DNA from: a virus
Taxonomy: Duplodnaviria; Caudoviricetes
IMG/VR virus record: IMGVR_UViG_3300022723_000184
Coordinates: 96,001-160,000 of that record
DNA: 64,000 nt
Strand: one strand, 5' to 3'
Positions 4,157-56,247 of the stretch are shown here, one piece after another; position 1 is the first letter of the stretch; each line of letters opens with the position of its first letter. The translations under genes were made by a program, and so were the position numbers. The notes beneath the pieces were generated by a model. It made no database searches. It saw only the letters and a program-made list of their open reading frames with translations, and was not told the DNA's origin.

Positions 4157-4874
4157 GACACCCGATATCGATTTCGACCAGGCGTATACGTCGTGGGCCT
4201 CGGACAGGTCTCCGCAGGCCAACGCCACGATCCTGAAGGTTCTCGACCCGGTGATCAGCCAGGCGGTGCAGACACACGTCGGTACGAGCAACCCGCTGCT
4301 CAAGGCCCGGGCCCGGAAGATGACGCTCGGCGCCCTGGGCTCGTTTGACCCGAAGCGGGGCCGGCTCAAGAGCCACTTGTATTCGCAGCTCCAAGGCCTC
4401 AAGCGGCAGCATGCCAAGCAGCAGAGCATCTTCCGGGTGCCCGAGCGGCTGATGTTGGACCGCCGAGGTCTGAAGGCGGCGCAGCAGGAACTGGAAGACG
4501 AACTGGGGCGGGAGCCGACGGACCAGGAGCTGGCGACGCGCACCGGGTTCTCGGTCGACCGGATCTCTCGCATCCGGCAGTTCAGCCCCGCGATGAGCGA
4601 GGGCTTCTTCTCGACGGTGGGCGAGGGCGGCATGGTCCCACAGTCCACGAGCCCGATCAGCCAGCAATCGTCGTGGGTCCAGGTGGTGTACGACGACCTG
4701 GGCCCGCTCGACAAGAAGATCATGGAGTGGACGCTGGGCCTCAATGGCCAACCCCGACTCTCGAACCAGGAGATTGCTTTGAGGCTCAAGAGGTCCCCGG
4801 GCGCCATCAGCCAGCGAAAGGCGCTGATCCAGCAGATGCTTGACGAGGAGCAGGACCTTTCCCCTTTTCTATGA
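4149..4874 (+). CDS. RNA polymerase sigma-70 family factor (FliA/SigF-like)
   Basis: Region 3 motif ELGREPTDQELATRTGFSVDRI; region 4 HTH LSNQEIALRLKRSPGAISQRK; region 2-like helix. Confidence 0.85.
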   Translation: MPETPDIDFDQAYTSWASDRSPQANATILKVLDPVISQAVQTHVGTSNPLLKARARKMTLGALGSFDPKRGRLKSHLYSQLQGLKRQHAKQQSIFRVPERLMLDRRGLKAAQQELEDELGREPTDQELATRTGFSVDRISRIRQFSPAMSEGFFSTVGEGGMVPQSTSPISQQSSWVQVVYDDLGPLDKKIMEWTLGLNGQPRLSNQEIALRLKRSPGAISQRKALIQQMLDEEQDLSPFL

Positions 4875-4882
4875 AACTATGC

Positions 4883-4917
4883 CAGCTCGTCGGCTTAAAA
4901 GCGAGACAAGGCGAGAC
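4883..4917 (+). repeat. Degenerate solitary CRISPR repeat A (sense, upstream of RBS)
   Basis: CAGCTCGTCGGCTTAAAAGCGAGACAAGGCGAGAC resembles repeat CTGCTCATCGGTTTAGAAGATGAGAC; stem CTCGTC/GGCGAG + AC; 31/35 identical to the copy at 33550 (-). Confidence 0.75.
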
Positions 4918-4931
4918 CTCTGAGGTAGACC

Positions 4932-5408
4932 ATGGGTACCGAACCGAAACCACAGTCCAAGGCCGAGATCGACTCGAACTTCGAGGGTCAGATCAAGAAG
5001 CTGCGTGAGCGGGCCAAGGACGAGGCCGACGCGAAGCTGGGCGGCGACAACGCCCAGTGGAACATCCCGGAGCTGGGCGATTGGGACGGCGACCTGTTCG
5101 CGGTCGAGGAGATCAGCGACGCGTTCAAGCGGGAAGAGGCCAACGAGAAGTTCGAGGAGGCGACCAAGGACTCCAGCTCGCCGGGTGTCGCCGGCGACCT
5201 CGGCGTTACCACACTGCAGGTTGACTACTTGGCCTGCATGGACCGGGCCTTCCGGGCCAGGCACACGATGCGACGGCCCCGGACCATGGCCCACATGACC
5301 GGCCGCCGCAAAGGCCACGGCAACGAGCGAGGTACGCTGACCCAGACGGCGTTGGAGTTCGCCCGCAACCTGCTTAAACAGGCCCAGGCGTCGGGAGGTG
5401 GTAGCTGA
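4932..5408 (+). CDS. Hypothetical protein in baseplate module
   Basis: RBS GAGG; coding-like composition; overlaps next start. Confidence 0.6.
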   Translation: MGTEPKPQSKAEIDSNFEGQIKKLRERAKDEADAKLGGDNAQWNIPELGDWDGDLFAVEEISDAFKREEANEKFEEATKDSSSPGVAGDLGVTTLQVDYLACMDRAFRARHTMRRPRTMAHMTGRRKGHGNERGTLTQTALEFARNLLKQAQASGGGS

Positions 5409-5893
5409 TGACCGTGACCGGATCCGTTGCTGCCTACGCCGATCGTCAGATCGACATGCTGGCTTTCCAGAACCCAGGTATCGGGAGCCTGGAACTGGTC
5501 GACTTGATCCTCGTCCCCGACGGCGGCAGCGGGTTCAGCATCGCCGGCATCGCCAAGCTCGCCCAGCGGTTCTTGATCGAGCTGCTGACTGAGCAGGGAT
5601 CGATCCCGTACGACACGGTCCGCGGCTCGACGTTCCTCACCGAGCTTCGGCAGGGTAGGGTGCGTACGACGCCGGCCGCCGAGACCGCGTTCTACCTGGC
5701 GCTGGACCAGGTGAAGCTCCAGCTGCAGCTGGAGGAGTCCGACGACATGCCCGACGACGAACGGTACGGGCGAACGACCCTCGACTCGATCGTGCTGTCG
5801 CCGGCCGATACGGTAAAACTACGACTGACGTTGTTCAGCTTGGCGGGGACCGGCGTGACGCTGTTGCTCCCGATTGAGACTACGCTTGGATAG
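5408..5893 (+). CDS. Baseplate wedge subunit, gp25/GPW-like
   Basis: LAQRFLIELLTEQGSIPYDTVRGSTF motif; size; precedes baseplate J. Confidence 0.65.
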   Translation: MTVTGSVAAYADRQIDMLAFQNPGIGSLELVDLILVPDGGSGFSIAGIAKLAQRFLIELLTEQGSIPYDTVRGSTFLTELRQGRVRTTPAAETAFYLALDQVKLQLQLEESDDMPDDERYGRTTLDSIVLSPADTVKLRLTLFSLAGTGVTLLLPIETTLG

Positions 5894-5922
5894 TGCCAGC
5901 TCGCTGGCGAATAGAGCGAGAC
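5887..5922 (+). repeat. Degenerate solitary CRISPR repeat B (sense, upstream of baseplate J RBS)
   Basis: TAGTGCCAG-CTCGCT-GGCGAATAG-AGCGAG-AC: same 6-bp stem, 9-nt loop and AC tail as the repeat; three compensatory pairs. Confidence 0.75.
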
Positions 5923-5939: not shown

Positions 5940-7643
5940 ATGACGATTCAGATCACCAACCTGGACGACGTGAACCAAGAGCTTGTCGCGGACAACCTCG
6001 ACGAGATCATCACGCGCCTGCAAGAAGACAACCCATCACTCGACCTCCGGCGAGGCGTCCTCAAGGACCTGCTTGCCGGCTACCACGCGTCGCTGAGCGC
6101 TGCCGAGCAGCAGACGTTGGCCCGGTACCTCAGCGCCCGGTCGCTGCAGCAGATCGAGGCCGATCCGACGCTGGCCGACGAGGGGGTGACCGACGACGTC
6201 CTCTCCAACTACCGGGTCACCCGGCAGCAGGGGGCTACGGCCCAGGGTGAGATCACGATCGTCGTCAGTCAGAACACCACGGTGGTCATCTCCGAGGGAG
6301 CCATCTTCGAGGCCGACGGGCAGCAGTTCGCTAGCGATTCGGTGTTCACGGCCAAGACCGAGGCCGCCCAGATCAACACGTCGACCGACCGCCTGCTTCA
6401 ACAGCGATCGGACGGCAACTGGTTCTTCACCATCACGGTGACCGCGGCCGAAGTCGGGACCGAGGGGAACATCGCCAAAGACACTTTCATGGTGCCGGCC
6501 GTGCCCCCGCCCAACTACGTCACGTCGTTCGCGACCAACGACTTCGTGAGCGGGACCAACACCGAGACCAACACCCAGCTGCTCCAACGATTGCAGGAGG
6601 GGCTCGCGGCCAGGGCCCCGTCCAACCGCACGAACATGAAGGGGATGCTCCGAGAGATCTCCGACGAGGCGTACGCCGGCAACCTGCATAGCTCGATCGT
6701 CGGGTTCGGCGACGAGGAGATGCTCCGTGACCAGCACACGATCTGGCCCGGCAGCCTGGGCGGGCGCTCCGACTGGTACATTCGCACGGTCGAGCAGCTG
6801 TTCCGGCTGACGCTGCAGCGGGAAGCCACGCTCGTCCAGATCGGGACCCGTGGCGAGCTATCGAATAACTGCTCGCCCGGAGGCCCCAACGCCTCGGACA
6901 TCGTAACGGTCTGGCAGTTCGCCCTGGCCCGCGACGACGCCCCCGGTTTCTACGAGATCCGGACGGTACGCCCCCTGGGATTCGATGAGGCCAGCGGCAG
7001 CTTCGAGATCCTGGCCGACATCCGGGGCCTGGACCTGACGGGCGACGGCTTCGTCCCGGACATCGACACCGTGGAGGAAGGGGCGTACAGCCGCTACCAG
7101 ACCACGGTCATCAAGTTCATTGACGACCAGGTTGACCCGACCACGGTCGCGGTCGGGGACACTAGCGCCTACGACGTGTCAGTGGCCATGATGCCCCAGA
7201 TCGGCGACATCCAGGACGACCTGAACACCCGCGACATCCGCAGCTACGGGTCCGACGTCCTGATCAAGGCCCCGGTACCCTGCTTCGTGTCGCTCTCGTT
7301 CACGATCAACAAACAGAACAACGTGCCGGACCCGGACCTCGATGCGATCAAGACGGCGTTGGCCAAAGAGGTCAACACGATTGCGTTCCTAGGCCGGCTG
7401 TACGCTTCGCAGCTGCACGACGTGATCCAAGGCCTGCTCGGAACCACGACCAGCGCCGGCAAGATCGACATGTTCGGTCGCCTGCGTTACCCGGACGGCA
7501 CGACCAAGTACGTCCGTGACTTTGAGGTGCTGGCGATCGACGGGCCGGCCGGGCAAATGGTCAGCCCGAAGACCGTGCAGTTTTATCTGGACGTCGAGGA
7601 CATCTCGATCTCGATCGCGACCAGCGTCCCCGTGCCCTCTTAA
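5940..7643 (+). CDS. Baseplate J-like protein
   Basis: ATAQGEITIV..VVISEGAIFEADGQQF and ITVTAAEVGTEGNI / GTNTETNTQLLQRL motifs of the baseplate J family. Confidence 0.8.
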   Translation: MTIQITNLDDVNQELVADNLDEIITRLQEDNPSLDLRRGVLKDLLAGYHASLSAAEQQTLARYLSARSLQQIEADPTLADEGVTDDVLSNYRVTRQQGATAQGEITIVVSQNTTVVISEGAIFEADGQQFASDSVFTAKTEAAQINTSTDRLLQQRSDGNWFFTITVTAAEVGTEGNIAKDTFMVPAVPPPNYVTSFATNDFVSGTNTETNTQLLQRLQEGLAARAPSNRTNMKGMLREISDEAYAGNLHSSIVGFGDEEMLRDQHTIWPGSLGGRSDWYIRTVEQLFRLTLQREATLVQIGTRGELSNNCSPGGPNASDIVTVWQFALARDDAPGFYEIRTVRPLGFDEASGSFEILADIRGLDLTGDGFVPDIDTVEEGAYSRYQTTVIKFIDDQVDPTTVAVGDTSAYDVSVAMMPQIGDIQDDLNTRDIRSYGSDVLIKAPVPCFVSLSFTINKQNNVPDPDLDAIKTALAKEVNTIAFLGRLYASQLHDVIQGLLGTTTSAGKIDMFGRLRYPDGTTKYVRDFEVLAIDGPAGQMVSPKTVQFYLDVEDISISIATSVPVPS

Positions 7644-7656
7644 AAAGTACTTTTTA
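7641..7656. promoter_or_regulatory. Palindromic operator-like motif TAAAAAGTACTTTTTA
   Basis: Perfect 16-bp AT-rich palindrome between a stop and a start; core recurs at 29933, 48099, 58170, 62496. Confidence 0.6.
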
Positions 7657-9815: not shown

Positions 9816-9888
9816 CGGCTAGAGTCACACCTTGTAAGCCGGTGCGCTGGCATGGTGACGCTAGTATAGCTAGATAAGGGGCTCAAGG

Positions 9889-28037: not shown

Positions 28038-28138
28038 AGTCACGCCTTTTGAACCGGTATGCCGGCATGTTGACACCAGTACGGCTACCTAAATAAACGT
28101 GTTTTTTGCGTCAAAATACATGCAGGCAAATTAGCCCG

Positions 28139-28174
28139 GTCTCATCTTCTAAACCGATGAGCAGGTATTAAGAT
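28139..28174 (-). CRISPR. Solitary CRISPR repeat C with leader end and -10 box
   Basis: 35/36 identical to the array repeat; preceded on - strand by TATAAT-ACCGAGG, like the array leader TATAAT-GCCGCGG. Confidence 0.92.
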
Positions 28175-29932: not shown

Positions 29933-29946
29933 AAAAAGTACTTTTT
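29933..29946. promoter_or_regulatory. Palindromic motif AAAAAGTACTTTTT
   Basis: Second copy; abuts solitary repeat E. Confidence 0.6.
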
Positions 29947-29979
29947 AAAATACCCGCATATCGGCTTAAAAGATATGAC
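29944..29979 (+). repeat. Degenerate solitary CRISPR repeat E (sense, upstream of RBS)
   Basis: AAATACCCG-CATATC-GGCTTAAAA-GATATG-AC; 25/36 identical; two compensatory pairs. Confidence 0.85.
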
Positions 29980-39160: not shown

Positions 39161-40048
39161 TTGGCCAAACGCAAGTTCACGATGCACGAGCAGATGATCT
39201 TCGACGTAATCCGCAAACAGGCGGGCACGCTGTCGAAGGCGGCGTTGGAAGGCGTGATGAACGCCGTCGACGCCAACGCCTCCGAGATCAAGATCACGCT
39301 CGACGAGGGCAGGATGACCCTGTCCGACGACGGTAAGGGGTTCCGGTCCAAGAAGGAGATCGAAGACTACTTCGAGACCTTCGGCCGACCTCACACAGAG
39401 CAAGAGCAGAAGGTCTTCGGCAAGTTCCGTATGGGTCGCGGGCAGATGTTCGCGTTCGGCAGGAACCTGTGGGAGACCGGACGATTCCGGATGGACGTCG
39501 ACGTCAAGGACAAGGGCCTGGATTACGACCTGAAGGAGCTGTCCGAGAAGGAGCGGGCGCCCGGTTGCTCGATCACGATCGAGCTGTACGACCAGTTGCT
39601 GCCGAGTGACGTCGACAAGACGGTCAGGGACCTGGAGCTGTGGTGCAAGTGGGCGCCGCTCCGTGTGGTGCTCAATGACCGGGAGATCAGTTCGGATCCC
39701 GCTGCCCAGGAGTGGCAGTACGAGACGGACGAGGCCTACGTCAGTCTGACGGGTGTCGGCGGTCTGACGATCTACAACCAGGGCGTGTTCGTCATGGACA
39801 TTCCGGCCTACCGGTACGGGACGGGCGGCGAGGTCGTGACCAAGATGGGTCAGGATCTTGACGTCAACTTCGCCCGCAACGACATCCTGGCTTCGTGCCC
39901 GATCTGGAAGAAGGTCTCGCCCTTCATCGACCAGCGGGCCACGGAGAAGAACACCAAGAAGCGGGCCCTGGACGACGGCGCCCGCCAGAGGCTGGCCCAC
40001 CAGTTGAAGGCCGGCGAAGAGATCGAGTCTCATCTTCTAAACCGATGA
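39161..40048 (+). pseudogene. GHKL (HSP90/MORC/rIIA-like) ATPase, truncated by a CRISPR repeat
   Basis: EGVMNAVDA, DDGKG, GKFRMGRG motifs; last 7 codons come from the inverted repeat; likely C-terminal remnant at 40077-40130. Confidence 0.7.
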
Positions 40049-40062
40049 GCAGGTATTAAGAT
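40027..40062 (-). CRISPR. Solitary CRISPR repeat G with leader end and -10 box (TACAAT, 40070-40075)
   Basis: 35/36 identical to the array repeat; 46 nt identical to copy C. Confidence 0.92.
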
Positions 40063-40406: not shown

Positions 40407-41074
40407 AAGGGGTCGGATACGCGGCCTAACCAGTTTACCACCGTCGGGCCGAGGTGGTAGGCGGCGGTCTGCTCCATGTAGACCACGCGATCGCGTTCGG
40501 CCCACTGCTTCGCAAATTGGATGTCGCAGGTCTCGGCGGTCTGAAACCGTTCGGGGTACGGCTTCCGTTGCGAGGTGTGGTAGAGCTGGAAGTAGCCTCG
40601 GACCAGGCCGTGCTCGAAGGCGGCTGAGTCCGGGGGGATGTACGCCAGGCGGGTGTGATACGGGATGAACGGGTCGGCCTGCTTGATCGCATAGCGAGAG
40701 GGTACGACGAACCTTGGCGCCCCGTACAGCTTAGTAGGGTCAGGGACGACCCGGTGCAGTTGGTCGATCGTCTTCTCGGGGATCACGATGTCCGCGTCCA
40801 GGTGTAGTATCCAACCAGGGGACGCATCGAAGATGCCAGCGCACCGGCTTAGCAGGTGCGACAGTGCCTTGCCCTTGTTGAACGGTGCACCGCCCTCGTA
40901 GAAGGCGTCGGTGCGGACAAGAGAAAAGCCCAGGTCCTTGCAGACCTGGGCCGTGTGTTCGTCTTGGTTGTCGGTCACGACGACGACCCTGGGGGTCAGC
41001 CGCTTCCAGGACAGGCCGGCGATCTCCAGGGTGTCGGCGTAGTTGACGCTGACACTGACGATCGTCGGCTGCAT
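40403..41074 (-). CDS. Glycosyltransferase, GT-A fold
   Basis: VSVSVNYADTL..VVTDNQD..FNKGKAL..ILHLDADI. Confidence 0.8.
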   Translation of the reverse strand: MQPTIVSVSVNYADTLEIAGLSWKRLTPRVVVVTDNQDEHTAQVCKDLGFSLVRTDAFYEGGAPFNKGKALSHLLSRCAGIFDASPGWILHLDADIVIPEKTIDQLHRVVPDPTKLYGAPRFVVPSRYAIKQADPFIPYHTRLAYIPPDSAAFEHGLVRGYFQLYHTSQRKPYPERFQTAETCDIQFAKQWAERDRVVYMEQTAAYHLGPTVVNWLGRVSDPF

Positions 41075-43906: not shown

Positions 43907-46860
43907 TCGAGATCCCAGTTCGGGTTCTCGGGATTCAACGCATCCATGATCGCACGGTCGATGCCGATGTTTTCGATCTCGGCAAGGTTCGGCCAGTTGC
44001 CAGTCGCCTGGTACAGTGTGATCAGGCCGAGGTTGGTGGCCTGGGCGAAGTCGTCGGACAGCGCAGGATCCCGGATGATCGTGTAGATGTCCTTACCCAG
44101 GCGGCTGTCGACCTTCTCCTCGACCAGGGCCAGGAACTCCCGGATGAGGCCGGGGTTCTCGGCGTCCTTGTAATCGTCTTGAAAGAACCGGAGCCAGCCG
44201 GTCTTGATCTGTTGGCAGGTGAGCTGCAGGGACCGGGGCTTGTCGACCAGGTAGTAGTCGCGGGGGTGGCGGTCCGTCCGGGGCTTGGGAACGATGATGC
44301 CGCCGACGGCCGCACGCTGCAGCTGGCAGGCGATGATCCGGTTGTAGGGGAAGCCGGCCTGATTGATGAACGTCTCCCGCAAGGAGCCGGCACCCGTGTA
44401 GTCGTGAGCCATCAGGTGACACTTGAACCGGGTGAGAAGGGCAATGGCCAGCCGGGCTTCCCGGGCATGGTCGTGGGGCGTCAGCGAACGCAGGGCGTAC
44501 AGGCAGTCCACCCGACCATCGGGCATCATGCCGAGGACCGAGTAGGTCGTGAAACTGATGCCCTGTTCGCCGCCGCCGCCCCAGTCCACGCCCAAACAGC
44601 GGAGGGTGTACTCGCCGATCTGTTTCTGGGCCTCTTCGACCTCGTTCTTCCACGGAAGGCACGCGGCCTTCATCAGGTCGGTGAGCGTCACGAGCTTCGA
44701 GCCGGTGTCGTAGCTCTCGCCGCAGACCTCGTTGTAGAACACATGGATCGGGGTGTTGCCCCGGCCCTCACGCTTGCCGAGAAGGACGTCCCACTTCTCG
44801 GCGTTGCCGTAGTGCATCGGCATGATGATCTGCGGCACGTGGTACCCGGCGAACGTCCAACGCTTTTCCGGGTGGGCATGAACCCAACGGCCGTGCAGCT
44901 TCGGGTGGATGGGCCTCCGGCACTTGGCGCAGATTACGGCCGGATTGTTGAAGGAGATGTCGTCACGCAACGGGCCGATCATCTTGTCGAGATCGTGGGT
45001 CATCGCCGGTACGTTATGGTAATTGCAGCGGTGACATTTGATGACCCATTCGGCCATCGAACTGTCTCGCCAAAGAGTTTCGATCGTGTTTTCGAGGGTC
45101 TTTGGAGTGCCCGCAAACGACTCGATGCCTCCGTACTTCGATCCGGACATCGTTTCCCGGATGATCGGGATGAAGTCTTTGTCGAGGTCCTGCACTTCGT
45201 CATAACAATTATGTGTCAGCACACCTTCAGCGAAGAAGCAGTGTTCTCGTTGCGTGTTGATGTCCCAAACCGGTTTGAGGTCAAGACGTTTTACGTGGAC
45301 TACGTGTACAAACGATGTCTCACTTTTCGACACTCTGGCCCGCAGACGGGATTCGATGCCGCAATCTGATGCTGCTTCGCTTCTATCGTTTTCCCGCACA
45401 TCGAACAGGCAATTTCGGGGCGAGGTTTCGCGAGCTTGTAAGACATCATCTTCGGGACGAACGCGGATACGTTTTCGGACAGTTTCCTGGAGTCCGCGGC
45501 CGGCAGGTAAACTAAGTGATAGAGCTTTCCTGTACGAGAGTTTATGGACGGGTGACGTTTGGCCGACAACAATTCTCGTCGCTGTAGGTCGGACGCGATG
45601 AGGTCCACTTCCCTTTCGGTGAACCCTTGCGTGTTGAAGTGGATAGTACTTCTTTGTCGTGCCCCGTCGTCCATGAGCTAGTAAGCGATTCCTCGCCAGT
45701 CGAGTCGTTCTAGCCAATCCTGACTGACGCGTTTCTTTCCTTCCGGACAGGTCAGCGCATACAGCGGAGCCAGCTCCACGGCGCTTACGGTGTTGAACAC
45801 GCAAGATACTTTGCCCCAGCCTTTGTTTTCTTTCACTCTTGGTGGTGTGGACACGTACTCGCCTAAGACTGCTGCCTTGTGTCGGCAGTACGCTTCTCGA
45901 GACCCGCCGTGGCGGAAGCATACCCGCGGGTTTGCTGTGTTGCTCGATTTTGACAGGCAAGCATCCCCGAGCAAACAGCCGAGTAGAAGTTGTTCTTGCT
46001 CGCAGGTCAACGGAGGCACCTTCTTCGGTTTTCTCCCCGGGCGAGAAAAGGGTCGACAAGCGGATCCATTCGCCCTCGGCGGTTTTGAACCGAGAGTCTT
46101 TTGTACACCTAAGGACCGAGCCATTGGAAAACCGGACTTCGTAGATCTGCTGGACGCCTTGGAAGATTTTTTCGGTAACGACATCGTCGACAACCTTTCC
46201 GTCGTTGTTGACGGCCGGCACGATGTCCCCAGTTCTGGCTTCGTCGATCCGGATACCGCCGCGGTTCCTGGTTTCGATTATTGTATCGCCTACGAAGCAG
46301 TTCTGGTCAGCGGAAATACCACGAGTACGTTCGGCGTCGAGGAACGCGAACGAGAAGATCATCTGGCTGTTGTTGCGGAAGGTACGTTGCAGCACAGAGC
46401 CAATCGTGTTCGTGCCGGTGAACACGTTGACCACGGGCGACTGCTCGATGAACGGTCGGATGTAGTTCTGGCTGAATCGCCGGATCATTTCAAACAAGGG
46501 CGTGACGTACAGCGTCGAGAAGTACGGCAGGCAGTTCGACTGCACGACGCCGCGACTTGCCAGGCTCGTCGACTTGGAGACTTGACGGCCTGTTTTGAGC
46601 AGCGACTTGCGGGCCATGCGAGTCCGGAAGAACGGCTCGAACGGGAAGTAGTTGTCGAGGCTGTACGGTTCGCCCTTGAGGTTGAGTAGCAGCGGGAGCA
46701 GGGGTTTCAAGGACGCCACCCTGCTTTTGCGCATGAGGTGGGCGGCCACCGTAAGTCGGCGGGTGTTGGCGTCCTCGAACCCCGATAGTTTTAGGCCGTC
46801 AAGGATCTTGGGCGAGACGTCGAGGCCCATTTCCTTGATGACGTCGGAGACAACTGACAT
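43903..46860 (-). CDS. terL: Terminase large subunit (GpA-like) containing an intein
   Basis: KTGRQVSKSTS P-loop; YDEVQD Walker B; LGVDWG nuclease; CxxC; C-terminal DDFAQA. Confidence 0.85.
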   Translation of the reverse strand: MSVVSDVIKEMGLDVSPKILDGLKLSGFEDANTRRLTVAAHLMRKSRVASLKPLLPLLLNLKGEPYSLDNYFPFEPFFRTRMARKSLLKTGRQVSKSTSLASRGVVQSNCLPYFSTLYVTPLFEMIRRFSQNYIRPFIEQSPVVNVFTGTNTIGSVLQRTFRNNSQMIFSFAFLDAERTRGISADQNCFVGDTIIETRNRGGIRIDEARTGDIVPAVNNDGKVVDDVVTEKIFQGVQQIYEVRFSNGSVLRCTKDSRFKTAEGEWIRLSTLFSPGEKTEEGASVDLRARTTSTRLFARGCLPVKIEQHSKPAGMLPPRRVSRSVLPTQGSSLRRVRVHTTKSERKQRLGQSILRVQHRKRRGAGSAVCADLSGRKETRQSGLARTTRLARNRLLAHGRRGTTKKYYPLQHARVHRKGSGPHRVRPTATRIVVGQTSPVHKLSYRKALSLSLPAGRGLQETVRKRIRVRPEDDVLQARETSPRNCLFDVRENDRSEAASDCGIESRLRARVSKSETSFVHVVHVKRLDLKPVWDINTQREHCFFAEGVLTHNCYDEVQDLDKDFIPIIRETMSGSKYGGIESFAGTPKTLENTIETLWRDSSMAEWVIKCHRCNYHNVPAMTHDLDKMIGPLRDDISFNNPAVICAKCRRPIHPKLHGRWVHAHPEKRWTFAGYHVPQIIMPMHYGNAEKWDVLLGKREGRGNTPIHVFYNEVCGESYDTGSKLVTLTDLMKAACLPWKNEVEEAQKQIGEYTLRCLGVDWGGGGEQGISFTTYSVLGMMPDGRVDCLYALRSLTPHDHAREARLAIALLTRFKCHLMAHDYTGAGSLRETFINQAGFPYNRIIACQLQRAAVGGIIVPKPRTDRHPRDYYLVDKPRSLQLTCQQIKTGWLRFFQDDYKDAENPGLIREFLALVEEKVDSRLGKDIYTIIRDPALSDDFAQATNLGLITLYQATGNWPNLAEIENIGIDRAIMDALNPENPNWDLD
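45208..46299 (-). mobile_element. Intein (364 aa) with frame-shifted, inactivated LAGLIDADG endonuclease
   Basis: Starts CFVGDT, ends FFAEGVLTHN before Cys; LLGCLLGDACL and IAY*LMDDG motifs lie in another frame. Confidence 0.9.
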
Positions 46861-51444: not shown

Positions 51445-52140
51445 ATGCTTTCAGGTATTGAGATCCAGGAGGCGGTGGTCCGCCAGAACGAGTTCGAGAT
51501 CGGAAAGGCCAGGCTCGACAAGGGCATTTGCCCGTTCACCGGCAAGAAGGTCGGTGAGTTCGTGCGCAGCGGTAGGGACCAAAGGCTGGACTTCCAAAAC
51601 CAGGTGAAGAACCGGCCGAGGATCAAGATCGATCCGTTCAACGCCGGCCAGCTGAACCCCAACAGCTACAACGTGCGGCTGGCACCGGAACTCCTGGTGT
51701 ACGACATTCCCCACCACAACCAGACGCTCGGCGGGTTTGAGGCCTACGTCTACCCGCTCGACATGAAGCGGGCCAACCCGACCCGGGAACTGACCATCCC
51801 GCGGAGCGGGCTGATCCTGGAGCCCGGCGTGCTGTACCTGGGCAGCACGATCGAATACACCGAGGCCCACAACGTGGTCCCCCAGCTCAACGGCCGGTCA
51901 AGCACCGGCCGCCTGGGTCTGGATGTCCATGCCACCGCGGGCTTCGGCGACGTGGGGTTCTGTGGGACTTGGACGCTGGAGATGAGCGTGATCCACCCGC
52001 TGCGTATCTACGCCGGCGTGGAGATCGCTCAGCTGGCCTACTTCGAGATCAGTCTCAGACACGAGACGTACAGGTCGAACAAGTACCAGGGCCAGCGAGA
52101 GACCCGCGCCAGCGGGATGCACAAGGACTTTGGTGGCTAA
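51445..52140 (+). CDS. dcd: dCTP deaminase
   Basis: NPNSYNVRL; GRSSTGRLG; AGFGDVGFCGTWTLE; IAQLAYF. Confidence 0.93.
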   Translation: MLSGIEIQEAVVRQNEFEIGKARLDKGICPFTGKKVGEFVRSGRDQRLDFQNQVKNRPRIKIDPFNAGQLNPNSYNVRLAPELLVYDIPHHNQTLGGFEAYVYPLDMKRANPTRELTIPRSGLILEPGVLYLGSTIEYTEAHNVVPQLNGRSSTGRLGLDVHATAGFGDVGFCGTWTLEMSVIHPLRIYAGVEIAQLAYFEISLRHETYRSNKYQGQRETRASGMHKDFGG

Positions 52141-52475
52141 TGGCTCACTTCTATGGCACCGTCGATGGGCGGAGCCGGACGGAAGGGACCAGATGCGGGA
52201 CCCGGTCATCGGGTCTCCGGACGGTGGCCGCCAGCTGGGCGGGCGCCGTACAGGTCAACCTTTACATCGACGAGAACGGGGCCGATTGCTGCGAGATCCG
52301 CTTCATCCGCTGGGAAGGTTGCGGAACCGACAAGCTGGTCTACGACGGTCCGATCGACCCTGGTGATCAGATCTCCGACCTCCTCGACCAGATCAAGGAG
52401 GAGCGGACGCTGCATCACGAAGACATCAACAAGCCGGGTCCCCGGCGTAAGGTACGGAGAGGAGCGATCACATGA
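52140..52475 (+). CDS. Hypothetical protein
   Basis: TAATG coupling. Confidence 0.6.
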   Translation: MAHFYGTVDGRSRTEGTRCGTRSSGLRTVAASWAGAVQVNLYIDENGADCCEIRFIRWEGCGTDKLVYDGPIDPGDQISDLLDQIKEERTLHHEDINKPGPRRKVRRGAIT

Positions 52476-52915
52476 GCGAGGACCACAACTGGAAAGTGTT
52501 GGAAGACGCGATCGACATTGCGGCGACCGGCCACCAGAAACAGATAAGGGCCGACGGTCGACCCTACATCGTCCATCCCGTAAGGATGGCGATGCGCCTG
52601 CTGCAGAAACACGGGCCGCTGCTGGCCGCGGTGGCCATGCTCCACGACGTCGTGGAGGACACCGACTACACGCTCGACGACCTGGCCGGGCTGTTCCCGC
52701 AGCACGTGGTTAAGGCGGTCGACAACCTGACGCGGCGTGACGGCGAGACATACGATGACTTCGTCGAGCGGTGCGGGGCCAACCCCTGGTCCCGCCTAGT
52801 GAAAATGCACGACCTGCGAGACAACATGCGGGACGTGGACGAGTTCAAGCCGTCGCTCCGCAAGCGATACGACAAGGCCCTCGGCCGCCTGGAGGAGATC
52901 GATGCCCAAACATAA
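52472..52915 (+). CDS. HD-domain (p)ppGpp hydrolase-like protein (Mesh1/SpoT HD)
   Basis: AATGHQKQIRADGRPYIVHP; MLHDVVEDT; VKMHDLRDN. Confidence 0.88.
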   Translation: MSEDHNWKVLEDAIDIAATGHQKQIRADGRPYIVHPVRMAMRLLQKHGPLLAAVAMLHDVVEDTDYTLDDLAGLFPQHVVKAVDNLTRRDGETYDDFVERCGANPWSRLVKMHDLRDNMRDVDEFKPSLRKRYDKALGRLEEIDAQT

Positions 52916-53339: not shown

Positions 53340-53550
53340 CAGACCGTGAGCCCGACCAGCACAGGTTGCAGGAAAGCCGGTCGAGTTGGAGTTCGACGGC
53401 CACGGCGGCCCCGGGTCGGCCCTCGGGGGCTGGCGGATCCTGACCGAGGTCCTCTGATGACCCTGTTCTCGGAGCGGGCCACCCGAAGGGCCTACTGGGC
53501 CCTGGGTGGTCCGGAGAACAACCGCTGCTGGCGGCCGAGTCGCCAACAGG
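53340..53550 (+). ncRNA. Candidate structured leader RNA upstream of cas12m
   Basis: GC-rich non-coding stretch with nested stems TGTTCTC/GAGAACA, GGCCACCC/GGGTGGTC, AGGGCC/GGCCCT. Confidence 0.4.
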
Positions 53551-53575
53551 CTGCTCATCGACAAGAGGATGAGAC
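53551..53575 (+). repeat. Degenerate solitary repeat H in the cas12m 5' UTR
   Basis: CTGCTCATCG-ACAAGAG-GATGAGAC: first 10 and last 8 nt identical to the repeat 3' part; exactly 20 nt before the ATG. Confidence 0.88.
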
Positions 53576-53595
53576 AAAAAAAAAAGGAATAGCGC

Positions 53596-55365
53596 ATGGG
53601 ATTCAATAAGGACCCAGAGGCCCGCTGTGTGGTTTACCAGTACGGCGGCAAACATCCGACGGAAAACGAAGACGAAGCGATCAACCAGCTCGCCAAGGCG
53701 AACCGTTTTCGGAACCGGCTCGTTGAGTTGGAGCTACAACGACGTGAAGAATACCACGCTGCGTTCTCGGGTTACGGAGACCTGGCGGAGCCGTCAAATC
53801 AGCTTGAGACGCTCAACGAGCAGCTGACCGCTGCGGTGGCAGAACTTAAGGCGTGGAGACAATTGAACGGCACTCGAAGTCAACACCCGACGCTAACCCC
53901 GCAGATCGTTTCGCTACGGGCTCAGGCTCGCCAGCTACGGACACAGATCAAGTCGATCAAGGAAGCGGCCAAAGGCGATCCTACGGTGCAGGCGGCAATC
54001 GAAAAAGCAAACCAGCAGCACCGAGATCAGACCAAAGCTGCGTACGGCGCTGTAAGAGAATCGAACCCGGAGGCCGAGGACGCCAGAGACCGGCATGGGT
54101 TGTTCTGGGGAACGGCCCTCCTAGTTCAAAGGGCAGCGACACAGTTCCAGAAGGGCCCTCCCCCGAGGTACAAACGTTTCGACGGGACGGGAACTATCGG
54201 CGTGCAGCTGCAGAACGGGATGTCTGTGGAGGATCTGTTCACTCCGGGCGGCAGCGTCTGGATTGACCCCGTTCCTCCGGAGGCCTGGGACCCGCAGACG
54301 CCGAGAGGTCAAAGGCGAAAACTCGCAAGAACGATGCTACACATGCGGATCGGCGGGAAGCCGCAGGCCTGGGTGATTCTAAAGCTACCTGTCACCGTGC
54401 ACAGACCGCTGCCTGCAGGAAAACTTATCAAGTGGGTCACGGTCACTCGGCGTAAGTACGGTTCACAGGCGCGGTGGTATGTAAACGTCACGACGGATAT
54501 CAGGTCTGGTGGCACGCTTCACGATGATGTTGCGGCTGCCGGATTTGTGGGTGTCGACCTGGGTTTCAGGTTGTTCAAGCCCGCAGAAAGCAGCTCAGGC
54601 AAGCGATCGCTCCGAGTGGCTGTATGGGCCGGAGATGACGGGGAGACAGGCGAACTTCGCCTCGACGCGAGGTTTATGTCCTACATCTCAAAGGCCGACG
54701 GTTTGAGGTCGATCCGGGACAAGCGGCTTGATCAGATCAGAGCGGCGCTGCTTCCGTTGTGTGACGAGGCGGGTACGCCGGAGTGGTGGAAAGACGACAC
54801 TCAACACATGGCCAAATGGAGGTCTCCTCGAAAGCTGTATCACTTGCTCCACAAGTGGAAAGACAACAGGTGGGATGGCGACAAAACGCTGTTCGATCTG
54901 TTGGTTAAGTGGGTAGTTCAGGACCGTCACCTCCACGTGTGGGAAGCCAACAATCGCCGAAAAGTAGCGGCTCGTCGCCTGGACATGTACCGGAACCTGG
55001 CGGCCTCTTTGAGGCGCAAGTACGCGGTTATCGGGATCGAAGACATCGATTGGCGGATCTGGAGCAAGTTGGCCCTGCCCGAAGAAGAGGAGACCAAGTC
55101 AAAGAAGTTCCGTGTTCAAAAGAAACATGCGGCGGTCGGTCTGCTTGCAGAGACGCTGTCGAATTGCGGGGCACAGGTTGTACGTTTGGATCCCGCTTAC
55201 ACGACGAAGCGGTGCAACGCCTGCGGCAAGATCACCGAATTTGACGCTGACCGGCACCTGCGACATACGTGCGAACATTGCCATGCGGAGTGGGACCAAG
55301 ACTACAATGCGGCAAAGAACCTGCAAGACATGGCGAGCGGCAACGCCGTAACGCAAACCGCGTAG
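53596..55365 (+). CDS. cas12m: Type V-M CRISPR effector Cas12m-like (589 aa)
   Basis: LFWGT, RYKRFDGTGTIGVQLQ, VHRPLP, KWRSPRKL, EANNRRK motifs as in Cas12m; RuvC D321/E482/D569; CNAC..CEHC zinc finger; adjacent array. Confidence 0.88.
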   Translation: MGFNKDPEARCVVYQYGGKHPTENEDEAINQLAKANRFRNRLVELELQRREEYHAAFSGYGDLAEPSNQLETLNEQLTAAVAELKAWRQLNGTRSQHPTLTPQIVSLRAQARQLRTQIKSIKEAAKGDPTVQAAIEKANQQHRDQTKAAYGAVRESNPEAEDARDRHGLFWGTALLVQRAATQFQKGPPPRYKRFDGTGTIGVQLQNGMSVEDLFTPGGSVWIDPVPPEAWDPQTPRGQRRKLARTMLHMRIGGKPQAWVILKLPVTVHRPLPAGKLIKWVTVTRRKYGSQARWYVNVTTDIRSGGTLHDDVAAAGFVGVDLGFRLFKPAESSSGKRSLRVAVWAGDDGETGELRLDARFMSYISKADGLRSIRDKRLDQIRAALLPLCDEAGTPEWWKDDTQHMAKWRSPRKLYHLLHKWKDNRWDGDKTLFDLLVKWVVQDRHLHVWEANNRRKVAARRLDMYRNLAASLRRKYAVIGIEDIDWRIWSKLALPEEEETKSKKFRVQKKHAAVGLLAETLSNCGAQVVRLDPAYTTKRCNACGKITEFDADRHLRHTCEHCHAEWDQDYNAAKNLQDMASGNAVTQTA

Positions 55366-55439: not shown

Positions 55440-55502
55440 CGATCGAACCGCTCGAAAACGGCCTGATAACCATGTACGCACGTGTAGGTTATAATGCCGC
55501 GG
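55440..55502 (+). promoter_or_regulatory. CRISPR leader with -10 box TATAAT (55490-55495)
   Basis: TATAAT 7 nt before repeat 1; same end motif at solitary repeats C and G. Confidence 0.7.
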
Positions 55503-56247
55503 ATCGTAATACCTGCTCATCGGTTTAGAAGATGAGACGCGGCATTGATTGCCTTCTTGAGTTGCTGCTCCAACATCGTAATACCTGCTCATCGGTTTAG
55601 AAGATGAGACATCGCCGCATCGCTGGAAGCGGGCGTGGCGTCGGCGGATCGTAATACCTGCTCATCGGTTTAGAAGATGAGACCTTTCTCTGTGTCCGAG
55701 ATAACGGGGTCACTAATGTCATCGTAATACCTGCTCATCGGTTTGGAAGATGAGACAAGCATCCGAGCAGCCGCTACAAGGACAAGATCGGCATCGTAAT
55801 ACCTGCTCATCGGTTTAGAAGATGAGACTAGTCGGGCAATTGCTCGAACGGCACAGAGATATCGTCATCGTAATACCTGCTCATCGGTTTAGAAGATGAG
55901 ACGCTTACCGGTGGCCGAGGCCAAGGCGCGATGGAGAACATCGTAATACCTGCTCATCGGTTTAGAAGATGAGACACGGTGGATCCGGTCGAGCGGCTGA
56001 TCCTTCACATCATCGTAATACCTGCTCATCGGTTTAGAAGATGAGACCCGGTGATCGACGCGGTCCTCGAGAACGCCGAGGACATCGTAATACCTGCTCA
56101 TCGGTTTAGAAGATGAGACAAGTGGATCAGGTTCTTCTCATCGTAATACCTGCTCATTGGTTTAGAAGATGAGACGCGGACTGCCCCGAGATGCGGCGCC
56201 GGCTGTGGGTAATCGTAATACCTGCTCATCGGTTTGGAAGATGAGAC
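55503..56247 (+). CRISPR. CRISPR array: 11 x 36-nt repeats ATCGTAATACCTGCTCATCGGTTTAGAAGATGAGAC, 10 spacers
   Basis: Repeats start at 55503, 55575, 55648, 55721, 55793, 55867, 55940, 56012, 56084, 56140, 56212; spacers 36-38 nt except spacer 9 (20 nt); 3' hairpin CTCATC/GATGAG + AC. Confidence 0.99.

Follow-up and report, generated by a model that had tools for sequence, protein, structure and literature searches.

Cas12m, the effector of type V-M (formerly V-U1) CRISPR systems, has been split into four clades according to its RuvC triad, and clades 3 and 4 carry mostly D-E-D (Omura et al., PMC10442227). Changing the H-D-D triad of Cas12m2 to D-E-D did not restore cutting, and the authors of that study left open the hydrolysis of DNA by the D-E-D clades (Omura et al., PMC10442227). 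H-D-D Cas12m binds the non-target strand in a magnesium-mediated manner, and in Cas12m2 a His-Arg pair in the WED domain reads C(-1) and the 3' end of the crRNA handle (PMC10442227). The orthologues that have been tested comprise four D-E-D, two H-D-D and two N-D-D proteins, none of which cleaves dsDNA; the D-E-D set (Table S2 of that study) consists of the Ms, Ap, Tf and Un proteins, with UnCas12m coming from an IMG/VR viral contig (Bigelyte 2024, PMC11013384). Purified MsCas12m, a D-E-D member, has no cleavage activity on DNA or RNA, whether in cis or in trans, and pre-crRNA processing survives in its D274A derivative (PMC11013384). The processing of pre-crRNA by MmCas12m is likewise independent of RuvC (D485A). 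Adaptation genes are typically missing from V-U1 to V-U5 loci (PMC11013384). A further D-E-D protein, MvCas12m (D305/E463/D555), is found in myxophage MV-1 (bioRxiv 10.64898/2026.09.14.751636). Our literature search found no report of nuclease activity in Cas12m3 or Cas12m4.

The locus described here belongs to a virus record of 201,946 bp (IMG/VR), and the window that we analysed is a stretch of 64,000 nucleotides made up of bases 96001-160000 of that record. The genome, rated 90% complete by CheckV, carries nearly all of its 218 gene calls on the + strand; a baseplate wedge protein and structural proteins of the virion are among its products and place the locus in a tailed phage. The cas12m gene (53596..55365, +) is an intact frame of 589 aa with an ATG start, and the start codon is correct because the N-terminus (M-x-F-G...) aligns with those of homologues. 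Alignment and model together map a coiled-coil REC domain (helices 25-154), the WED residues H269/R270 (54400-54405, +) and a CCCC zinc finger spanning C540-C562 (55213-55281, +). The RuvC residues lie in the motifs GVD321LGFR, IGIE482DID and DQD569YNAA, with D321 encoded at 54556-54558, E482 at 55039-55041 and D569 at 55300-55302. Searches of the neighbouring genes with PHROG and Pfam returned little; on the upstream side they recognised a dCTP deaminase and an HD domain, and the downstream proteins received no assignment. The dCTP deaminase-like and HD-domain (HD_4) genes are directly upstream of the cas12m locus (51445-52915); an HD_4 gene is also found downstream of cas12m on contig L002, which is otherwise unrelated to this phage.

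The phage protein is a full-length Cas12m of type V-M. It matches the PADLOC Cas12u1 profile with an E value of 1.8e-98, residues 11-580 aligning to profile positions 3-530 of 533, while Pfam and NCBIfam recognise its C-terminal TNB/TnpB part only. Its best sequence matches in the PDB are all to Cas12m proteins: 23vw (5.9e-67), 8hhl (Cas12m2; 1.5e-26), UnCas12m4a (9e-22) and 8pm4 (GoCas12m; 2.5e-19). The entry 23vw_A is TfCas12m, its sequence text being the same as that of QNB45423.1, and it aligns with a score of 230 bits and about 33% identity by eye; the closest solved relative is therefore a D-E-D member that has been tested as non-cutting. With the AlphaFold model (pLDDT 86.6) as query, the top four Foldseek matches were Cas12m2 and GoCas12m structures with TM scores of 0.56-0.65, the best (0.65) having E values of 7e-30 for Cas12m2 and 4e-28 for GoCas12m; Cas12f and TnpB scored far lower. 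The predicted fold has the coiled-coil REC, the WED and the RuvC with an inserted zinc-finger TNB domain that characterise the family. H269 is present in 155 of 158 family representatives and R270 in every one of the 158, both being invariant in the alignment of homologues; the C540/C543/C559/C562 zinc finger is conserved among the same representatives, and the alignment shows that the phage protein has every residue that is invariant in the family. A six-frame Pfam search of the whole 201,946-bp genome, in which the controls gave matches, found no Cas1, Cas2 or Cas4. An earlier note on this DNA, made from the sequence alone, had proposed a phage-borne Cas12m-like effector that keeps D321, E482 and D569, in a window that lacks cas1, cas2 and cas4. 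The full-length Cas12u1 match in a tailed-phage genome bears out the first part, the family alignment shows the residues to be kept and correctly numbered, and the absence of adaptation genes extends to the entire 202-kb genome. Taken together, the profile match, the fold, the HR pair, the handle of the array, the lack of an anti-repeat and the lack of cas1, cas2 and cas4 give the locus all of the sequence-level characters of type V-M.

The earlier note also held that the D-E-D triad sets this protein apart. We searched 1.84 billion cluster representatives with a profile and obtained 3,402 matches at E<=1e-30, a set that includes distant Cas12f- and TnpB-like proteins; in the 158 best full-length representatives of those matches D-E-D is found 137 times (87%), and the other 21 have scattered triads such as NED, DKD, HDD and NDD. 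D-E-D is the ordinary, ancestral state of Cas12m and need not signify nuclease activity, and the triad does not distinguish the phage protein. The premise that the Mycolicibacterium Cas12m has a non-canonical triad and binds without cutting is sound: the published triad of Cas12m2 is H-D-D, and the protein lacks cutting activity (PMC10442227). The suggestion of a cutting relative, which had been drawn from the triad, finds no support in the four D-E-D orthologues that leave dsDNA uncleaved. A canonical D-E-D triad, which the phage protein has, is required of a nuclease-active Cas12 such as a Cas12f-like protein but does not suffice, as those orthologues show. Competence in RNA processing, also put forward as a possible distinguishing property, fails to separate the protein from its relatives since the Mm and Ms proteins already process pre-crRNA without RuvC; by analogy with those two, a D321A substitution would probably have no effect on processing by the phage protein.

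A true RNA-guided nuclease, whose D-E-D site would cut or nick the target DNA or act in trans on ssDNA or RNA, in contrast to the H-D-D Cas12m2, is an unlikely description of the phage protein. Its attractions are that none of the three catalytic residues or their motifs has been lost, either here or in the sister protein P0002 and three other phage-borne homologues, that Omura et al. raised the possibility for the D-E-D clades (PMC10442227), and that the identity of the phage protein to the tested orthologues is only about 33%. They have to be set against the absence of dsDNA cleavage in four D-E-D orthologues, the nearest solved relative and one viral protein among them, against the lack of DNase or RNase activity of MsCas12m in cis or in trans, and against the failure of a restored D-E-D triad to make Cas12m2 cut. 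Residues of the triad have also been lost repeatedly and independently (21 of the 158 representatives), and a function that depended on nuclease activity would not tolerate such losses. Strong yet not absolute conservation points to a role that probably stops short of DNA cutting. Metal-mediated (Mg) binding of the non-target strand, as in the H-D-D proteins, is the obvious candidate for what the D-E-D residues may do.

A CRISPR array (55503..56247, +), which the earlier note does not name, begins 138 nt past the cas12m stop codon. Its 11 repeats, each 36 nt long (ATCGTAATACCTGCTCATCGGTTTAGAAGATGAGAC), alternate with 10 spacers that measure 36-38 nt, apart from one of just 20 nt. All 10 spacers are unique and non-self, and nine of the 11 repeats show either no differences or differences confined to the loop. 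In the stretch 56120-56175 the short spacer, spacer 9, is followed by a repeat with a stem substitution (C to T) that leaves a G-U pair; a small deletion in the array may lie behind this. A TATAAT box (55490..55495, +) that ends 7 nt before the first repeat is a candidate promoter for the array, and a promoter scan of the cas12m locus found no full sigma-70 match. When the array repeat was compared with the lone copies found elsewhere in the phage genome and with repeats from another three Cas12m arrays associated with phages, a pseudoknot of two helices emerged, formed by repeat positions 9-11/20-22 and 14-19/29-34, in which 98.9% of cells pair and five of the nine pairs show compensatory change. 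The helices occupy the same positions as those in the PmCas12m crRNA. No anti-repeat word of at least 9 nt is present within 2.5 kb of the locus, pointing to a single crRNA with no tracrRNA.

Targets for the spacers were sought in the phage's own genome, in GenBank phages and in PLSDB plasmids, as well as in IMG/VR using the first 24 nt of spacers 1-3, and none was found. The mean GC content of the spacers (0.61) is close to that of the phage (0.625), as might be expected if their targets came from the same host environment. The repeat family gave only four single matches, which are probably due to chance, among 185,579 GTDB species genomes, no match in metagenome contigs, and in IMG/VR one real array (on contig G001) together with two chance matches. 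The view of the earlier note that the spacers come from host machinery is unsupported by this survey, there being no array of this repeat family in the 185,579 species genomes.

The nearest relative, P0002, is 46% identical and has a 10-repeat array on an AT-rich, phage-like contig of 87 kb with which this phage has only cas12m in common; no close relatives of cas12m emerged when IMG/VR and JGI metagenome contigs were screened with peptide patterns. A tree built from 160 sequences joins the phage protein to P0002 (support 1.0) on a long branch whose deeper placement it does not settle. The phage-borne copies do not form one clade, because those of Virus Rctr197k and of G001, a 106-kb IMG/VR contig with a 629-aa homologue and a 9-repeat array, branch elsewhere in the tree. 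The cas12m gene has the lowest GC3 (0.673; median 0.858) and the lowest codon-usage score of the 142 phage genes of at least 150 aa. From these sequence comparisons, the simplest and most likely reading is that the effector and its array were acquired horizontally as a module.

Alternatively, the module might be a passenger that the phage captured recently and that has lost its function. The module is an extreme compositional outlier, no spacer has a target in the phage's own genome, GenBank phages, PLSDB or IMG/VR (spacers 1-3), and the array contains one 20-nt spacer and one repeat with a stem mutation, all as might be expected of a passenger. However, the frame is intact over 589 codons with all of the family-invariant residues present, nine of the 11 repeats are identical or have changes in the loop only, and the sole stem change gives a G-U pair. 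In addition, the diverged lone copies keep their pairing, a sign of long-term selection for the handle in this genome. We regard a defunct module as very improbable.

The lone copies of the repeat are spread over the genome. The covariance model detected 13 of them outside the array at E<=0.004, in addition to a weaker match in the cas12m leader. At least 14 lone Cas12m repeats are present, all of them intergenic or abutting the 3' ends of genes. A copy that is 1 nt off the array repeat (28139..28174, -) has a TATAAT box 7 nt upstream, and an identical one (40027..40062, -) has TACAAT upstream and overlaps the stop of a + strand gene (39161-40048). Of the diverged copies, one precedes the ATG of a 64-aa gene by 16 nt (29944..29979, +), another precedes that of gene 4932-5408 by 24 nt (4873..4907, +), a third lies within a block of minus-strand genes (40826..40862, +) and a fourth, with compensatory changes in its stem, follows a TATACT sequence (9824..9859, -). 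A further copy (5887-5922, +) was confirmed by eye. Outside the window there are, in genome coordinates, five copies on the - strand (5222-5257, 7620-7655, 46773-46808, 53583-53618 and 163592-163627) and two on the + strand (72751-72786 and 174582-174617). All six of the sense-strand copies end 11-24 nt before a start codon, and five antisense copies have a -10-like box (TATAAT, TATACT or TACAAT), 7 nt and then the repeat, which is the layout of the array itself. Both helices are kept in the lone copies through compensatory changes. No lone copies are present near the gene in three Cas12m relatives, and the 106-kb relative (G001) has none anywhere.

The GC content of the array repeat is 42%; that of most diverged lone copies is 51-62%, with one at 33%. 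This contrast, taken with the low GC3 of cas12m, raises the possibility that the lone copies may predate the present module or stem from an earlier, more GC-rich one. A 29-nt motif (1 mismatch), which is the only long self-match in the phage genome, is common to the sequence that follows the 28139 repeat (28103-28136, -) and to the intergenic genome positions 189125-189153 (-), with TTATTTAGGT coming after it in both places. We considered the former as a guide carried by the lone repeat and the latter as its target, and rejected this; there are mismatches at guide positions 2 and 9, and the two sites probably share a promoter-like element.

The copy in the cas12m leader is a repeat-derived hairpin, or psi-repeat (53539..53575, +; covariance-model match E 0.21). 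It starts with GTCGC, has an exact CTCATC/GATGAG stem and ends with GAGAC, and its core, CTCATC-N8-GATGAGAC, had an expectation of 0 in 100 shuffles. Within the 2.5 kb examined, it is the only place outside the array with a repeat word of at least 9 nt. Within the next 20 nt come an A10 tract, the ribosome-binding site AGGAA and then the cas12m ATG, so that what lies 3' of the psi-repeat is the ribosome-binding site and start codon of cas12m itself; a sigma-70 scan found no separate promoter. There is no such hairpin upstream of cas12m in the three relatives that were examined. The position of the psi-repeat in the leader suggests that Cas12m might regulate itself by binding the leader of its own mRNA.

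A broader proposal is that Cas12m mainly regulates the phage itself through the lone handles, of which there are at least 14, by sitting on ribosome-binding sites and start codons, its own included, or by defining the 5' ends of mRNAs. This is possible, if doubtful. The 13 copies at E<=0.004 and the leader copy, with helices kept by compensation, speak for it, as do the placement of six sense copies 11-24 nt upstream of an ATG and of five antisense copies 7 nt after a -10-like box, and the lack of such copies near the gene in three Cas12m relatives. Nevertheless, a well-kept array of 11 repeats with 10 unique, non-self spacers indicates a conventional role against invaders too, and a regulatory role through RNA binding has been shown for no Cas12m; the proposal is, besides, compatible with defence against rivals and does not replace it. 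Our tentative formulation is of a non-cutting Cas12m turned regulator that might bind handles 11-24 nt before several phage start codons, including its own, and might also take up single-repeat guides that are separately promoted. If that were true, the phage would draw two uses from a single CRISPR protein of horizontal origin, which would be a weapon against rivals and, at the same time, a post-transcriptional switch subject to its own negative feedback.

We think it probable that the phage carries a complete, minimal type V-M module, acquired horizontally, whose product is a non-cutting, RNA-guided DNA binder directed against rival elements. Cas12m would bind the pseudoknotted 36-nt handle through H269/R270 of the WED domain and, by analogy with tested orthologues, would itself trim the array transcript; the spacers would then guide it to the PAM-flanked dsDNA of rival phages or plasmids, where it would clamp on and, if it behaves as those orthologues do, block their transcription or replication without cutting. 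Secondarily, the hairpin before its own ribosome-binding site would allow Cas12m to bind the mRNA leader and limit its own synthesis. The model draws on the family, the fold, the array, the structure of the handle, the conserved residues, the missing adaptation genes and the outlying composition that we observed in this phage, while binding without cutting and self-processing are taken over from tested orthologues. Three points count against it: the protein and its sister P0002 form a long branch and match the tested orthologues at only about 33% identity; the retention of D-E-D in 87% of the representatives argues that the triad still does something; and no protospacer was found for any spacer as searched (for IMG/VR, spacers 1-3).

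The phage protein is a divergent new member of its family and not a novel type. The claim about the effector as it was first stated matters little, D-E-D being normal, the tested D-E-D members being non-cutting and phage-borne Cas12m being on record. It is a compact and divergent orthologue, with 589 aa and no relative above 46% identity in the collections, and as such could extend the Cas12m toolbox of programmable DNA binders and could provide another test case for the role of D-E-D in a non-cutting family. The context is more valuable: this phage combines the effector with an array, with structurally intact lone handles numbering a dozen or more and with a handle-like hairpin in the effector's leader, and so offers a favourable natural setting in which to ask if viruses reuse CRISPR proteins to control their genes.

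Among known systems, TfCas12m of Thermanaerosceptrum fracticalcis, entered in the PDB as 'CRISPR-associated DNA-binding protein Cas12m' (23vw), is the best match and aligns with residues 14-578. It has in common with the phage protein the D-E-D triad (its D306/E459/D550), the HR motif that reads the handle, the CCCC finger, a similar size and a single crRNA. TfCas12m is bacterial and chromosomal whereas the protein described here is phage-borne; the lack of cleavage would probably be shared. MmCas12m2 (8HHL/8HHM/8HIO) and GoCas12m (8PM4) have the same coiled-coil REC, WED HR pair, RuvC with inserted zinc finger and pseudoknot positions, but they are H-D-D (H317/D485/D579 in MmCas12m2 and H322/D497/D590 in GoCas12m) and only 22-23% identical to the phage protein, and the zinc finger is HCCC in the Mm protein instead of CCCC. 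UnCas12m (IMG/VR Ga0104756_100012943; Bigelyte 2024) and MvCas12m resemble the present system in being virus-derived D-E-D proteins with an adjacent array and no cas1, cas2 or cas4, and UnCas12m, when tested, did not cleave dsDNA. Their descriptions set them apart, with lengths of 583 aa for UnCas12m and 610 aa for MvCas12m and triads at other positions, and scattered lone repeats have been reported for neither.

Virus Rctr197k (KX853510, 197 kb) is also similar. Its homologue, a D-E-D protein of 622 aa with 33% identity, has an array after its gene, and the 36-nt repeat of that array has the same pair of helices. The protein, however, is on another branch of the tree, and its gene, labelled 'similar to transposase' beside a 1.5-kb CRISPR, was never annotated as Cas12m. 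With Rctr197k in GenBank and the myxophage in a preprint, phage-borne Cas12m is already on record. The Rctr197k genome (L007, KX853510; 640-900 and 1-408) also has a second, different CRISPR of four repeats by another 'transposase-like protein', approximately 5 kb from the Cas12m locus.

The repeat copies outside the array have parallels of their own. CreR and other crRNA-like RNAs (bioRxiv 10.1101/2023.03.10.532045; PMC10120712) are alike in that a degenerate repeat is found beside a cas gene, with possible feedback on the Cas protein. CreR, however, guides the effector to cas promoter DNA by partial complementarity, whereas the psi-repeat of the phage lies in the sense leader before the ribosome-binding site. 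The solitary repeats of viruses, or Racrs (PMC10651486), are likewise lone repeats in a viral genome; they mimic the repeats of the host and disable its Cas proteins, while in this case the phage itself encodes the matching Cas protein.
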